A DNA stretch of 19,913 nucleotides from NCBI GenBank assembly GCA_036679605.1, contig JAZDCZ010000311.1:1-19913 (forward strand), read 5' to 3'. The stretch's first letter is position 1; every line of letters begins with the position of its first letter. The notes below the pieces were generated by a model, which saw only the letters and a list, made by a program, of their open reading frames with translations, did not search any database and was not told where the DNA came from. This document shows, piece after piece, positions 5,596-12,081 of this stretch. Source of the stretch: Gemmatimonadota bacterium (GTDB lineage: Bacteria; Gemmatimonadota; Gemmatimonadetes; Gemmatimonadales; GWC2-71-9). The position numbers and the translations under genes are program-made.

Positions 5596-5688
5596 AGCCC
5601 CGAGGCGTTTGAACGCGCCTCATGATGAGGCTTCGGTTTGTCTACGGGATCGGGGGAAGTCCAATAGTTAGCCGATGCTGCGAGGCGG

Positions 5689-5697
5689 TGTTAACGT
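5689..5697 (+). promoter_or_regulatory. Extended -10 promoter, probably giving a leaderless antitoxin mRNA
   Basis: TG-T-TAACGT lies 7 nt before ATG 5705, with no Shine-Dalgarno in between. Confidence 0.45.
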
Positions 5698-5704
5698 AGT
5701 GTCC

Positions 5705-5905
5705 ATGAATCGGGTAGAATCTATTGAGAAAGAGATCCGAGCTCTCTCGCCAGAAGATCTAGCCACGTTACGGGAGTGGTTTCTTGAGTACGACGCCGCG
5801 GTATGGGACCAGCAGCTTGAGCAGGACGCACACACTGGCCGTCTCGAGGGGCTTGCGGAAGAGGCGGTCGAAGCTTACCGGAAACGGAAAACCACTGAGC
5901 TTTGA
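5705..5905 (+). CDS. Putative antitoxin (small acidic protein)
   Basis: MNRVESIEKEIRALSPEDLATLREWFLEYDAAVWDQQLEQDAHTGRLEGLAEEA..., a familiar partner type for ParE-like toxins. Its TGA overlaps the toxin TTG start (TTGA, 5902-5905). Confidence 0.82.
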   Translation: MNRVESIEKEIRALSPEDLATLREWFLEYDAAVWDQQLEQDAHTGRLEGLAEEAVEAYRKRKTTEL

Positions 5906-6156
5906 AGCACGTCGCCTCACCTCGGTTCTGGGCGTGCTACCACGCACTACCGCGTGAGATCCGAACCCTTGCAGACGAGAAATTCACGTTACTGAAGAGT
6001 GCTCCAAAACATCCGTCATTACACTTCAAACGAATCGGATCTCTCTACTCGTGTCGGATCGGCTTGCGATACCGAGCTCTCGGTACTCCGATCAACGACG
6101 GCGTCGTATGGTTTTGGCTAGGAACGCATGCTGAATACGATCGACTCGTCGGCTAA
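5902..6156 (+). CDS. ParE/RelE-superfamily toxin
   Basis: 84-aa basic protein 'FWACYHALP..I...A...F.LLK..P.HPSLHFKRIG.LYS.RIG..YRALG......WFW.GTH.EYD', translationally coupled to the antitoxin. Confidence 0.88.
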   Translation: MKHVASPRFWACYHALPREIRTLADEKFTLLKSAPKHPSLHFKRIGSLYSCRIGLRYRALGTPINDGVVWFWLGTHAEYDRLVG

Positions 6157-6257: not shown

Positions 6258-6825
6258 TTACGGCGCTACCCGCTGCTGCGCTCCCGAGGTGACAAGACGC
6301 GGGCCCATTTGAATTCCGTCAACCGGCATTCCATGCAGATCGTTGGCATCAAGAACCGTGACGCTGAAGTCGCCTTCCTGAAGTTGTTTTGCAGCGGCAA
6401 ATCGACAGCTTACGGCATCGGTAGGCCCATCGAGTCCGGCAATCGAAATAACACCAACGTTAAGCCGCAGTCCGCGCGGCCCAACGGAAAGATTGAAGGC
6501 GACAAGACTTTCCGATCCACCTGCCGGCAGCGCAAAGCAGTCCACTAACGAACTGACCGCAGAATCAAAATCGACCGCGAACTGTAATGTCCCGACAGAC
6601 ACGGTATTTAAAACTCTGAAGAACACGGCCTGTGGCAGGTTAGATCGCACTGCCCGCCAACCGCGCAGTTGAGGTGAGCAACTCACCTGCAACATTACAT
6701 TGATCTACCGTGCAAGCGCTTCCTTCGTCCGCACACGTCGCTCCGGCAAAGCCGGTGCATTGTTGCGATGATTCATCGCAGAGCACATTGCAATCTTCAT
6801 TCAGCCGACACGGATCCCCCGGATC
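6258..6825 (-). pseudogene. 3' remnant of a secreted Cys-rich repeat protein with a C-terminal cohesin-like beta-sandwich; frameshifted and 5'-truncated
   Basis: 'GDPCRLNEDCNVLCDESSQQCTGFAGATCADEGSACTVDQCNVAGE' joins 'CSPQL...GTLQFAVDF...DC...LVAFN...VGVISIAGLDGPTDAVSCRF...GDFSVTVLDAND' if one base near 6680 is removed. No signal peptide or credible start. Confidence 0.65.
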
Positions 6826-7558
6826 CAGATGCACAAGGAATGCCTACTCCAGTCGGGACTGGGTTCTTCGTCTCGCCCGATGGCTGGTTCGCGACTGCTG
6901 CCCATGTCGTAAAGGACAAGGATGGGAACGTCCGTAATGACATTTCCAGTGCCTGGCTCCCGAAGAAGCAGGCCGCGGACCTTGTTGGCGCGATGTGCGA
7001 GGGTGTCTCGTTCGACTACATCAATCCGCAATGGGACATCGTTCTGCTAAGAGTCGACTTTGCGAAAAACAAGGACAGGGAATGGCTCAAGGGTAAGAAT
7101 TTGTTCCCGTTCATCGAGGTCTCTCGTCGACAACTGGAAGAAGGCGAACCTGTGTATTCCTTCGGATACCCGTTGTCGGAGGCACGTACCCAATAGCAGT
7201 CAGGGTTGATCGTTGGCGAAGTGTCCCTCAGTCCGAGGGTAACGTCGGCAATCGTGTCCTCTACGCTCGAGAAAACGAAGATGCTGATGTCGAGCGGCGA
7301 CGAGAAGATCTACGTCCTCGACAAGGCGCTCAACTATGGGAACAGTGGCGGACCCATTGTGGCCGCCGAGACTGGCAGAGTGCACGCGCTATGCTCTCGG
7401 TTTCAGCCGGTGATGGTCCCGAGCCGCACCTGACTGGTTCTGGAGGCAAGCAGATCGCTATCATAACGCCAAGCCTGTACGGGATCGTCCTTGCTCTGCA
7501 CAATCCAAGCATCCTGAAGGCCTTCAGTGAAAGATCAATTCCGACGACAGCAGCATGA
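6819..7558 (+). pseudogene. Trypsin-like (S1) serine protease pseudogene, a former integron cassette gene
   Basis: GTGFF, TAAH, DIVLL, GYP and GNSGGP motifs are all present. In-frame TAG at 7194-7196. A frameshift near 7421 is followed by 'PHLTGSGGKQIAIITPSLYGIVLALHNPSILKAFSERSIPTTAA*', ending at 7558, 4 nt before an attC. Confidence 0.88.
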
Positions 7559-8121: not shown

Positions 8122-10533
8122 TCAGCCGCTCCTATGGAATGTAGCCGTCGAGGTGACAAGCGCATTTTGGGAGCTCCGATCCAAGTAGACGCTGCCGTTC
8201 CTCCATTCGTACTTCGTTGAGAAACGGTTCCCTCGCCAACGCCATTTCTGCGCCTCTCTCATGACGCCTGGGGCTTCAGTAGGTGTGGCTATCCAAACTA
8301 GTTCCCCTACATAGAATCCCATGTCTCGCGACCCGCGCCCCTGTCTGGTCAAAACCCCCTCATATCGGTTCCTATCGACGTTCCAAGTAACCCGCATATG
8401 GTAAAAATTATTCGCGATTTGAGCTTCCCACTCCCCAATCAAGGATAGACCGTAAACCCGTTCTACTTGGTTACGCTGGGTTTCGGTACCTGATGCGGCC
8501 AAGCTTGTGACGGTACGTCGTTCGCTGTGGGTCGCCGGCCGTGAAGACGGCGAAGCTTCCTTGAAAACTATGCCCGAGAGTTTTTTGCGCTTGCCATCGC
8601 GAAGGACCACCAAGGCAACCCCTTTGTTAATCGGAGTTTTGGCGACAATCGACGCCAGTTCCGAAGGCTGACCGACCTCTTTGCCGTCGAAGCGGACTAT
8701 GACATCGCCGATTTTGACCCCGGCCTCGGCGGCCGGGCTGTCGTTAAAGACTCTGGCGACCAGAGCGCCCTTGACCGCAGGTAAGTTAAAGGCTTTTGCA
8801 ACCTTTTCATCGACCGGTTGCATCAAGATACCTAGCCATCCACGCGTAAGGCGACCGTGGTCTTCGAGGTGAGGGACCGTCGAGGTATCAGCCGCCGGGT
8901 CTAGGACTACCGAGTCATTCCAGATATCATACGTCGGGTTTGAAACTACCGTGTCATCCAAGGGCTTCAGTCGAGTTGTTTCAACGGTCTCTTGCGCAGC
9001 CTGCGCAGTAGCTTTCGGTCGCAACGCGCGCGTCGTTTTGCTGTAACTCGGTGACTCTCTCGGTTGCTTTTCGCCTGGGACACCCTCATCGCTTGACGTC
9101 GATTTCGAGCCTAAACTCTTGGTTTCTAGATCATTCGGGGGATTGGCTGTCGGGCTCTCGCGAACTGAATCGAAAAACATATAGCGGTCGATCGCGACCA
9201 TCCCGCCCACTGTGAGAAGCGCGACGATTGTCCCGGCAGCAAGCCACGCGAGCGGTCGCCTTGAGGGCTCGCCGTTGCCCCAAAGCTGCTTTGCCTCTTC
9301 AACGCTGTCAACTCCGGCACAATCAACTCCCCGCTTGGATGCGACTTTGACAAGGCGATCATATTCCGCCGCATCCGAAGTGCCCCGGCGAGGAACATTT
9401 GCCGCGGGGTAGAGAAACATCCCTGCTCGCCGATCGGCTATTACGATCTTAAGTTTTTCAAGTAACCCGCCAATTTTGCCCACTTGGCCCTTACCATCAG
9501 GAAGAATTTCACCCGTAGCATAAATCACATTGGGACGTTTCTCGCCTCGCCCGAATCGAGCAAGCTTGTCTGCTATTGCCAACGCGAGTTGATAGCTGTT
9601 CTCTTCGAAATTGCTGCTGAGCCAAGATACTACGACACCTTTCTTATACGATCGAGCTTTGCGCTCGCCGAACCGCGCTTCGAGGATAGCGTCACTACAC
9701 GCCTTACAATTGACGGCACCAGTCACCGTGATGTCTCGCGATGGGCCGTCGTGCAACTCGCATGTAACAGAGTTTAGACTACCGCCGTTCTCCTCATTGC
9801 CGTGGACTACTGGGAAATAGACGGTAGCACGGCCAGGGCCGCATGCGGTCGCCACCGAGTGTGGCTTGCCAGCAGATGACCCAGCGTTGTCGTTCCCGAA
9901 GCCGGAGCGTTGCTCGTAGGATCCGGTCGTCCTATCGGTGGCTCGTGTCTCCGCTGCTTTACGAGGGTTCTCGCTACACGCTTCGGTTTTTCGCGGGAAG
10001 CGAGCTTCGACTTGATCGCGGGACGAGAAAGCCGCGGCAGCTGAGTTATGTAGTTCGGCTTGGAGCTTCTCACTGTCCTTCCCTGCTGGACCACGTGCTG
10101 CAGCGACCGCAATATTTTCAAGCAACGTCCCTATGGAATCCAGTGCACGGGCCAGATGTCGATCAGTCAGATCGGGAGCACCGCCATCAACGTGGCCAAC
10201 TACGTTTCGGATAGCTTGAACCAGACTTAAACGGCCTATCGTCGCTCGTTCTGGCGGCCCGTCGAATAACCGCTTCCAATCGCGTCGCAAGAGTTTACAA
10301 AGCAACTGCGCGTCCCAGACCACTTGGCCATCGCGCGGGTACATCTCGATATTCTGCTTGAAAAGGTCTTGCCTACCTCGATCTTGCGGCCACGACGCAT
10401 CCCCGATAAACGTTGCCCAACTTTTTCCGTAAACTCGTTCATAGGCGAAAAACAGGAGATTCTTTACCGGGCCCGCAAAGAAATCATTCACCGCGTTCCA
10501 TTGAAATATGTAGTTTGGCCTTGACGTAAACAT
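8122..10533 (-). CDS. Membrane-anchored fusion: Swt1-like HEPN / Lon-type (S16) Ser-Lys protease / TM / DegP-type PDZ / C-terminal beta domain (about 803 aa)
   Basis: HEPN: 'WDAQLLCKLL..DW..LF...IRNVVGH...D...RALDSI..LL' with Rx4H at 10209-10192. Lon-like: 'NSYQLALAIA...YATGEI...G.VGKIGGLLEKL...FLYPAAN' with Ser at 9597-9595 and Lys at 9456-9454. TM at about 9252-9190. PDZ: 'HGRLTRGWLGI...GALVARVFNDSPAAEAGVKIGDVIVRFDG...VLRDGK' at about 8877-8563. ATG 10533 is preferred over 10647 because it avoids overlap with the upstream gene. Confidence 0.88.
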   Translation of the reverse strand: MFTSRPNYIFQWNAVNDFFAGPVKNLLFFAYERVYGKSWATFIGDASWPQDRGRQDLFKQNIEMYPRDGQVVWDAQLLCKLLRRDWKRLFDGPPERATIGRLSLVQAIRNVVGHVDGGAPDLTDRHLARALDSIGTLLENIAVAAARGPAGKDSEKLQAELHNSAAAAFSSRDQVEARFPRKTEACSENPRKAAETRATDRTTGSYEQRSGFGNDNAGSSAGKPHSVATACGPGRATVYFPVVHGNEENGGSLNSVTCELHDGPSRDITVTGAVNCKACSDAILEARFGERKARSYKKGVVVSWLSSNFEENSYQLALAIADKLARFGRGEKRPNVIYATGEILPDGKGQVGKIGGLLEKLKIVIADRRAGMFLYPAANVPRRGTSDAAEYDRLVKVASKRGVDCAGVDSVEEAKQLWGNGEPSRRPLAWLAAGTIVALLTVGGMVAIDRYMFFDSVRESPTANPPNDLETKSLGSKSTSSDEGVPGEKQPRESPSYSKTTRALRPKATAQAAQETVETTRLKPLDDTVVSNPTYDIWNDSVVLDPAADTSTVPHLEDHGRLTRGWLGILMQPVDEKVAKAFNLPAVKGALVARVFNDSPAAEAGVKIGDVIVRFDGKEVGQPSELASIVAKTPINKGVALVVLRDGKRKKLSGIVFKEASPSSRPATHSERRTVTSLAASGTETQRNQVERVYGLSLIGEWEAQIANNFYHMRVTWNVDRNRYEGVLTRQGRGSRDMGFYVGELVWIATPTEAPGVMREAQKWRWRGNRFSTKYEWRNGSVYLDRSSQNALVTSTATFHRSG

Positions 10534-10549: not shown

Positions 10550-11143
10550 TCATTTCTCCTGGCTCGGCTCGAAGGTTCCCATGCCTTCGATATCCAGTCG
10601 GATTCCATGTTCATGAGCCCTGTCCACCGGCGATATTCCCGGGTCATTCCAAATTACCCCTATTTGACAGGTATCGTCGATGGCGCCCTTCAACCATTCC
10701 CGACCGCCCGTATCTACAAGGCGCACTTTAGTTCGGCGTGGGAGCTTTCCTGCTATCTCCCGTTCTATCTTTAGGGAAACTACCCAGCGCGGTGCATCCG
10801 ACTGGGTCCTAAAACACGACACCGAATAACCGTTCCCTTTGATGGTTACGGGACCTTGACCCGCCGCGGCACGCAGCCAAACCACCTCACCGTGCCCCTC
10901 GTCCTGCCAATACCGGCGCGCTTCTTGAATCATTGTGTCTCGCGTCCGCCAGAAGGCCTCGCGTGACGCGCGGCACTCCCAGAGCATCTGCTCTTCCTGA
11001 AAAGAAAAAGGCGGTCCACCCTCGAGCACTTGGCGGATCCGTTCTGCGCTCAGCCTCGCTTCGGATCGCAGGGGCTGACCAGCCAAAGCATCAAATAGAA
11101 TTTCTAGTTCAACGTCTTTCATAGTCCAGTCCTTGAGAGTCAT
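10550..11143 (-). CDS. Putative soluble anti-sigma-like protein / protease substrate (197 aa)
   Basis: ATGA overlap with the upstream gene at 11140-11143. The helical N-half 'LSAERIRQVLEG...EEQMLWECRASREAF' resembles a degenerate anti-sigma domain. LRAAA at 10876-10862 precedes a beta-rich C-half; no TM. The CDS is solid, the function is inferred. Confidence 0.6.
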   Translation of the reverse strand: MTLKDWTMKDVELEILFDALAGQPLRSEARLSAERIRQVLEGGPPFSFQEEQMLWECRASREAFWRTRDTMIQEARRYWQDEGHGEVVWLRAAAGQGPVTIKGNGYSVSCFRTQSDAPRWVVSLKIEREIAGKLPRRTKVRLVDTGGREWLKGAIDDTCQIGVIWNDPGISPVDRAHEHGIRLDIEGMGTFEPSQEK

Positions 11144-12081
11144 CGTGAATTTTTCGAAACAGAGGTGATGACTTTCTCCATCGCTATTGTTTGGCATACA
11201 ATTGCCCGCGCTTGTTCAATCCTTGCACGCAGTTGGGCTCTCGTTACTGCGAACTCCGCCATGTAGTCTTTCTGCCTGTATGGTACGTCCGTGAAGACGC
11301 CTCGCTTAACCGTTGTTGCCAATGCGAGAGCAAGTTCCGGGTGCTCCACATATAGGCGCCTGAGAATGGCTTTTGCGCGTGCAGAAAAATGCGGGCTAGC
11401 GTGGACCAATTCCCCCATATCGTTAAGATTGCGTTCTCGGCAATCGGGACAGAATTCGCGAAAGTAAGACTCCAACGTGACCATTGTCGTGGGCAGATTG
11501 TGTCTCGACGCGTCGTCGATCTGCTTGATACGCTCCAGCACCCTCTCGATATGGTCATCCTCACATGCCTCACCGGGACCAAGCTTGTGCTTATCAGCAA
11601 GTTTGCTGCTGAGTAGTGCGATCTTCATCTCCCACCCCCTTCGTCGGTGGGGTTTCCCAGGGAGCACGCGTAGCCGTTGTTTGTCTAAATAGGATTTCAG
11701 GATCTGACCAAGCGCCTGTCTCGCAGTGAAATCCATATGCCCCGATAGTGCACCCCGTTCACGGTCCGCTGACAGCAGTTCCGTGAGGCGATCGATGTCA
11801 CCAAGAAGCCCAATTGCATCGTCTGCGCCATAGGCGCAAAGGTGTGGCACGATCCCGGATATCCATTTATCTACCTTCTCACGCAGCAATGTCCCATCGC
11901 CTGGATGAGCCGCCGCTTGAATTACAGCCGCAGCGTCGTCGACGCTGAACGATCCAAAAGCTGCAGCGACGACCCTGCTTCTTATGTGTTTCCATTTTGG
12001 ATAGTCCGAAAGTGGATCCATACCCTCTCCCTTCCTCAGGGCCCGGCGCTCCTGGTGAGATCCGGGCCCTTTGAGCAACAC
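11140..12081 (-). CDS. Divergent sigma-factor-like protein with a C-terminal sigma4-like HTH
   Basis: GTG 12081 follows a GGGGGAG RBS (alternative ATG 12021). All-helical character; the C-terminus 'ILRRLYVEHPELALAL...RQKDYMAEFAVTRAQLRARIEQARAIVCQTI' fits the sigma70 region-4 pattern; internal CPDC. The CDS is solid, the function is inferred. Confidence 0.55.
   Translation of the reverse strand: MLLKGPGSHQERRALRKGEGMDPLSDYPKWKHIRSRVVAAAFGSFSVDDAAAVIQAAAHPGDGTLLREKVDKWISGIVPHLCAYGADDAIGLLGDIDRLTELLSADRERGALSGHMDFTARQALGQILKSYLDKQRLRVLPGKPHRRRGWEMKIALLSSKLADKHKLGPGEACEDDHIERVLERIKQIDDASRHNLPTTMVTLESYFREFCPDCRERNLNDMGELVHASPHFSARAKAILRRLYVEHPELALALATTVKRGVFTDVPYRQKDYMAEFAVTRAQLRARIEQARAIVCQTIAMEKVITSVSKNSR

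Follow-up and report, generated by a model that had tools for sequence, protein, structure and literature searches.

The window (the whole stretch of 19,913 nucleotides analysed) carries on its minus strand three consecutive genes, encoding a sigma-like protein, a soluble two-domain linker protein and a Lon-like protease fusion in this order, which we read as a proteolytic switch. At slightly better than even odds (roughly 0.55), Lon would cut the linker protein at Ala86|Ala87, ClpXP would remove the sigma-bound N-half, and the sigma-like partner would be freed. This reading, made from sequences and models, builds on what is directly observed: the gene order, a near-invariant Ala-Ala (AA) pair in a variable inter-domain coil, intact catalytic Ser and Lys residues, a transmembrane (TM) anchor on the protease, and a clpX gene in the genome. 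The features are listed in Table 1.

Table 1. Features of the module and of its upstream neighbours, in positions of the window.
Feature	Position	Strand	Evidence
Two upstream co-oriented genes: TM + coiled-coil protein, 266 aa; membrane protein, 162 aa	12086..13427	-	
293-aa all-helical sigma-70-like protein: helical bundle, wHTH, sigma4-like HTH	11140..12021	-	family HMM E 9.6e-18
190-aa soluble two-domain linker protein P0002, putative anti-sigma	10550..11122	-	database product start 11122
Helical N-half of the linker protein, residues 3-74 (putative sigma-binding fragment)	10901..11116	-	
LRAAA linker motif, P0002 residues 83-87	10862..10876	-	translation; coil in model
Conserved Ala85-Ala86 core, predicted P2-P1	10865..10870	-	column counts
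Beta-sandwich C-half of the linker protein, residues 92-178; weakly resembles CalpT10 fragment	10589..10849	-	model and fold searches
803-aa fusion: Swt1-like HEPN - Lon-like protease - TM - PDZ - unknown C-terminal domain	8122..10533	-	
Swt1-like HEPN, Rx4H motif RNVVGH (10192-10209)	10111..10533	-	
VAAA (10096-10107) and SAAAA (10030-10044), after HEPN	10030..10107	-	
Lon-like (S16) protease domain; Ser351 (9595-9597), Lys398 (9454-9456)	9274..9834	-	family HMM E 4.6e-32
Single predicted TM helix after Lon	9190..9246	-	hydropathy 2.03
HtrA/DegP-like PDZ, predicted extracytoplasmic sensor	8578..8847	-	Pfam PDZ_2 E 4.8e-13; DegP-type models

Translation of the minus strand confirmed the LRAAA motif named by the first-pass annotation. 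The linker gene has two alternative starts, one at 11143, where an ATGA joins it to the stop codon of the gene upstream, and one at 11197; in the 215-aa ORF 11197-10550 the motif occupies residues 108-112. The AlphaFold2 model of the protein (mean pLDDT 92, pTM 0.81; 70-sequence alignment) consists of helices over residues 3-74, a coil over 75-91 and strands over 92-178, so that LRAAA lies in the inter-domain coil, between a helical N-half and a beta-rich C-half as had been proposed. On the cleavage reading, the helical N-half is the fragment that would bear the new -AA end. Residues 81-90 of the linker were modelled at pLDDT 87, and the linker may therefore be ordered and packed instead of floppy. 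No TM helix was predicted in the protein (maximum hydropathy 0.43), and sequence searches of Pfam, NCBIfam, PADLOC, PHROG and PDB assigned it to no family. In fold comparison, CalpT10, the chain left after the cut in CalpT (8b0u_C), aligned to the model over 74/76 residues (Z 4.7, rmsd 3.6, rank 19), starting with CalpT10 residue 195 at residue 86 of the linker protein, at a score tied with unrelated SOD and MATH sandwiches. Foldseek placed CalpT10 at rank 37 (E 0.049, probability 0.84), CalpT10 was absent among the best 50 matches of a further fold run, and no sequence match was found between the linker protein and CalpT10/DUF2080.

Given the composition of the long ORFs of this genome, 190 residues are expected to contain 0.28 AAA and 0.0025 LRAAA by chance; AAA is thus unremarkable, and only conservation makes LRAAA meaningful. 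An unfiltered HMMER search (E<=0.001) returned 78 proteins, comprising the query itself, two spurious repeat proteins and 75 homologues of approximately 180 aa with 22-36% identity. The homologue set was extended by four proteins from a profile search and by 26 non-redundant locus copies, many of the loci having been retrieved via a C-terminal peptide pattern outside the Ala-Ala motif. Left out before counting were P0034 and P0068 (the long, spurious repeat proteins), P0075 (no coverage of the linker), the unrelated ORFs L011/L012 and the duplicates L025, L039 and L042. AA was present within query residues 82-89 in 76/78 search-derived and 26/26 locus-derived rows (102/104 homologue rows in all); in any other 8-residue stretch it occurred in at most 18% (mean 6%), at a mean pairwise identity among search hits of approximately 27%. 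A query with a masked linker still gave AA in 80/82, and the C-domain alone as query gave it in 38/40. The motif was spread across the whole of a quick tree, used only for spread. The rows share ancestry and include two identical pairs, so these counts do not represent independent events.

Column counts over 105 rows were 26 for Leu83, 64 for Leu84, 94 for Ala85 and 103 for Ala86, with position 87 occupied by Ala, Ser or Asp (70, 18 and 12 rows). The conserved unit is thus (L)-A-A-[A/S/D], and neither L-x-A-A, whose conservation had been put forward for checking and which was kept in only 59/104 rows, nor the full pentamer: family members mostly carry Leu directly before AA, where the window protein has Arg84. 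Of the earlier proposal that LRAAA is a Lon cleavage site and cryptic degron, the form of the motif accordingly has to be revised; the near-invariance of AA, the co-travelling Lon with its invariant Ser and Lys, and the presence of clpX speak in its favour, and the loss of conservation among homologues that the first-pass annotation would have taken as a refutation was not observed. The same alignment bears on the alternative that the alanines are structural, forming a tight turn packed on the beta-sandwich or on the partner and never being cut. The confidently modelled linker would fit such a turn, as would the other invariant positions of the family (Trp, Gly and Asp), which are structural. 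However, neither Gly nor Ser was found at position 85 or 86 in any of 100 ungapped rows, suggesting that Ala is specifically read and not just required to be small. Moreover, the flanks of AA are highly variable, and in each of two distant clades the linker gene is almost always accompanied by a gene for a Lon-like protease with intact catalytic residues. We regard a purely structural role as quite unlikely.

RsiW exposes an AAA C-terminus after cleavage and is then removed by ClpXP. The exposure of VAA in RseA and its reading by ClpXP, also invoked by the first-pass annotation, agree with bioRxiv 491043, according to which VAA is the stronger and AAA the weaker tag in M. tuberculosis. That CalpL cuts CalpT after Ala is likewise borne out by bioRxiv 2021.12.06.471393, which places the cut at VLRHVA|ST and describes a need for Ala or Gly at P1. 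For CCaCalpT of the Cloacimonas system, bioRxiv 2024.05.08.593097 describes a cut that uncovers the degron LQLAA, on which sigma release depends, and an A-to-D change that blocks this release. By comparison with such sites, we infer that the scissile bond is Ala86|Ala87, with Ala87|Gly88 as the alternative: Ala86, Ala85, the Leu-rich position 84 and the small residue at 87 fit P1, P2, P3 and P1' of a CalpT/RseA-type site. The cut-and-degron reading is weakened by the Arg in place of Leu before AA in the window, and by AAA being the weaker ClpX degron in M. tuberculosis in the text cited above.

Alternatively, AA could serve as the Lon recognition site (P2-P1) only, cleavage being enough to part the two halves or to set the partner free, with no requirement for ClpXP. 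The limitation of CalpL to Ala or Gly at P1 would by itself explain Ala86, position 85 tolerates Val, Thr or Leu, and Arg84 would make a non-canonical tag. Yet the retention of Ala85 (94/105) and Leu84 (64/105) matches -LAA degrons, and in the CalpT precedent cleavage alone did not free the sigma factor. We consider a recognition site without degron function unlikely, and retain cleavage followed by ClpXP as the preferred reading.

The neighbouring genes, the 293-aa ORF and the fusion alike, were recognized by profiles derived from homologous loci, the window proteins having been left out (E-values in Table 1). A Lon-like gene was present in 24/26 main-clade loci, directly downstream in 21 and 6-7 kb off in a divergent operon in three, and both loci without Lon stop no more than 60 bp short of a contig end. 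The sigma-like gene was found upstream in 24/26 loci, the other two beginning at contig starts. Across both clades, linker gene and Lon occurred together in 45/47 loci. The main-clade loci with names belong to Desulfobacterota and Chromatiales. Catalytic Ser and Lys were invariant in 21/21 main-clade Lon domains. Profile comparison matched the family to Lon proteases (E 0.0014) and to CalpL (7qda, E 0.0025), the latter match covering residues 122-200 and spanning the dyad S152/K193; Pfam Lon_C matched 0/21 of the domains. A TM helix follows Lon in 18/18 full-length main-clade proteins scanned, that of the window included; the main-clade protease is membrane-anchored, with its catalytic domain predicted inside. 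At two loci (L005:3696-4319(-) and L041:1198-1812(-)), a TM-less Lon-like paralogue without the catalytic Ser and Lys adjoins the active Lon gene and is possibly a pseudo-protease regulator.

The protease of the window carries additions of its own. The fusion lies on one uninterrupted contig in run X1, which is probably the source data, and its likely start is Met39, preceded by a GAGAGG Shine-Dalgarno (SD) sequence. The HEPN call rests on a match to Pfam PF18731 below the cut-off (E 0.00093) and on the Atlas, in which 24/30 matches were to HEPN_Swt1 (0.91); with a HEPN fold and an intact Rx4H motif at the N-terminus, RNase activity is predicted. No HEPN domain was found on the other Lon proteins examined or elsewhere in this genome, and the HEPN on the protease is a lineage-specific addition. 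The first-pass annotation had suggested that the alanine runs VAAA and SAAAA behind the HEPN domain might allow self-release of the nuclease, Lon in this copy also cutting its own N-terminal extension. Both runs are present between HEPN and Lon within 26 residues, a placement with a post-hoc chance of approximately 2%, and the Rx4H motif is intact. Against this, two Ala runs are expected in an 803-aa protein at P=0.27, no homologous HEPN-Lon fusion was met among the Lon proteins examined, and on the family linker profile the runs scored below 4.3 bits, outside the top four sites of the fusion, as compared with 12.5 bits for the true site and 9.65 bits for the 5th percentile of homologues. No internal start with an SD sequence was found ahead of Lon in the fusion. 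Self-release at these runs is thus unsupported, and we hold it to be highly improbable; as the same annotation had allowed, they are probably ordinary helix residues. HEPN would probably be activated by oligomerisation instead.

Two further sites scored on the linker profile. TVTSLAASGT (window 8485-8514, minus strand; fusion residues 712-721, between the PDZ and the C-terminal domain) reached 10.4 bits, and EIESLRASST (residues 190-199 of the coiled-coil ORF 12886-12086) 9.8 bits. They are possible extra substrates or chance matches, the chance expectation being 0.09 and 0.04 per protein, respectively.

The identity of the partner is less firmly drawn. Its family consists of proteins of approximately 300 aa whose gene always stands before the linker gene where the contig reaches. 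The best match of the family profile was to sigma-70 region 4, and to region 4 only (E 0.014), and a Pfam sigma match was obtained for 1/23 family members (E 0.015). The model of the 293-aa protein contains three helical domains, an N-terminal bundle included. Foldseek returned nothing at E<=0.001 for this model; sigma-70 factors made up 11 of the 48 matches listed, in near full-length alignments at E>=1.1. The C-terminal domain aligned with region 4 of sigmaH, SigW and sigmaE at Z 5.0-5.4. The protein is therefore called sigma-like, on weak grounds, and not a proven sigma factor, and the putative anti-sigma label of the linker protein in turn derives from adjacency to it. Lon might accordingly cut at AA with a non-sigma partner, for instance a multi-HTH regulator, the small protein being another kind of inhibitor or adaptor. 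The confinement of sigma similarity to the C-terminal HTH and the resemblance of the middle domain to generic winged helices point in this direction, but the near full-length sigma-70 alignments in Foldseek, for all their E-values, and a three-domain layout that fits sigma2-sigma3-sigma4 do not. We consider a non-sigma partner very unlikely and continue to read the 293-aa protein as sigma-like.

A distant clade, met in 1/400 further genomes of the phylum of genome G414, was related to the main family by hhalign at a probability of 98.3. It was found in 57/301 genomes of one proteobacterial family, and cultured strains therefore probably exist. Its motif is G-M-L-R-A-A-[S/A/D], also readable as LR-[AV]-A, with AA in 38/38 distinct copies examined; MLRAAS was recovered by tblastn in both L063 and L064. 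Sigma-like gene and Lon were both present in 21/21 wider distant-clade loci, and Lon is here a soluble tandem with Ser and Lys in the second domain, invariant in 21/21. The gene order (L049, L080-L099) is sigma-like gene, LRAA protein, one intervening gene and soluble tandem Lon. Downstream of these genes in L049 (G1401:C1:1543000-1559000) lie genes for a zinc-ribbon SPFH protein and for a Ser/Thr kinase-FGE fusion, and upstream lies a transpeptidase gene. Four homologues (G1749:C29, G1546:C1, G1779:C68 and G1714:C1) each matched as two segments in a single frame; judged from the sequences, this suggests insertions of approximately 16-48 aa just before the motif.

The two upstream genes of the window probably share an operon with the trio and stand outside the conserved part. 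Neighbours of the main-clade loci encode envelope or secreted proteins (CsgG/FlgO, PG-binding, TPS, DUF4384 and RCC1 domains; 64 of 88 listed ORFs scanned). Genes for CsgG/FlgO-domain lipoproteins repeatedly adjoin the main-clade trio (L004-L010, L026, L027, L046) and are candidates for its regulon or sensing apparatus. No Pfam match to cas, CARF or SAVED was obtained in the 64 of 88 listed neighbour ORFs or in 7 ORFs of L049, no CRISPR repeat array was found in the window, and a sigma-70 promoter scan yielded no promoter. Word-index searches returned only self for the linker protein and for the sigma-like protein. Searches of 40 relatives and of 400 genomes from the phylum of the window genome gave one weak spurious match but no homologue of the linker protein, the plasmids searched gave none either, and in the classes of genomes G416 and G413 only the seed genomes matched (1/209 and 1/201, respectively). 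The module sits in a lower-GC stretch, which together with the negative search of the 400 phylum genomes is consistent with horizontal gain. The assembly measures 6.7 Mb with 6.3% contamination, a same-genus relative approximately 3.7 Mb, and contig C237 fits the bulk GC. Elsewhere in the window, a trypsin-like peptidase is split into two ORFs of 142 and 75 aa (6768-7433, plus strand; probably a frameshifted gene), and a small unit of two genes that includes a ParE-like toxin domain (5675-6156, plus strand) is a likely toxin-antitoxin pair.

In the proposed sequence of events, the helical N-half of the linker protein would bind and hold the sigma-like protein until an envelope signal, received here via the outer PDZ, activates Lon, probably through clustering. 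Lon would then cut after Ala86, with Ala at P1 as for CalpL. The N-half would end in -R-A-A (family consensus -L-A-A, compare ssrA and CCaCalpT) and be unfolded by ClpXP, and the freed sigma could transcribe envelope or secreted-protein genes. If this is true, the family represents a signalling system that has gone without annotation, none of its three genes being called by Pfam, with a precise cleavage site; CalpL-type sigma activation by a cut after Ala and subsequent ClpXP action would exist outside CRISPR; and a membrane-anchored Lon could replace the DegS/RseP cascade by a single cytoplasmic cut. The HEPN-Lon-PDZ fusion of the window suggests recruitment into defence. A wider and more speculative reading, which taken as a whole we think rather improbable, is as follows. 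There would be a widespread CRISPR-independent family of one-cut Lon/anti-sigma/sigma modules, with CalpLTS as its CRISPR-wired offshoot or as an analogue, and the AA cut-and-degron logic would be coupled to varied inputs. In Desulfobacterota and Chromatiales the input side would be a membrane anchor bearing outer domains; another proteobacterial family would use soluble tandem Lon accompanied by SPFH proteins and a kinase. In the window, HEPN and the DegP-like PDZ would turn envelope damage into sigma release and RNA cleavage, as an envelope-triggered defence or dormancy device.

No published description of this three-gene module was found in the literature searched, which largely consisted of sources other than subscription papers and bioRxiv supplements. 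By analogy, the module most likely follows CalpL/CalpT/CalpS- and RseA-like logic, as a relative without CRISPR of a switch known from antiviral defence. With CalpL/CalpT/CalpS, i.e. the SAVED-Lon, anti-sigma and ECF-like sigma of type III CRISPR systems, it shares, on the reading above, the three-gene protease/anti-sigma/sigma logic, a Lon-fold Ser-Lys protease, and a soluble substrate of two domains whose connecting loop contains a site ending in Ala, with a small beta C-domain (weakly similar in fold, as described above) and a predicted -AA degron. Unlike CalpL, the protease of the window has neither SAVED nor the CalpL N-terminal domain, but a HEPN-Lon-TM-PDZ architecture (Lon-TM in homologues), and it is TM-anchored in the main clade or a soluble tandem in the distant one. 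The N-half of the linker protein is all-helical and approximately 75 aa long, whereas that of CalpT is MazF-like; the partner, with approximately 300 aa and three domains, is larger than an ECF sigma; and cas genes and an array were absent from the scanned neighbours and the window, respectively. Lacking SAVED and a MazF domain, and with no CRISPR linkage seen among the neighbours scanned and in the window, the module is therefore not a member of CalpLTS. The RseA/sigmaE system (DegS-RseP-ClpXP), like further membrane anti-sigmas that carry XAA degrons, resembles it in a cryptic X-A-A C-degron exposed by cleavage, which is predicted here and read by ClpX in those systems (bioRxiv 491043), and in a PDZ envelope sensor on the protease, predicted in the window fusion. 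Since the linker protein has no TM helix, it is not an RseA-type membrane anti-sigma, and a single cytoplasmic S16 cut would replace the site-1/site-2 cascade. Finally, HetF/PatU3/HetZ of Anabaena is similar in that the protease is anchored in the membrane, has its catalytic domain in the cytoplasm and cleaves a soluble inhibitor, which sequesters a transcription regulator encoded beside it; HetF, however, is a CHAT/caspase protease that cuts after Arg117 (PMC9457339), whereas here a Lon protease would cut after Ala.
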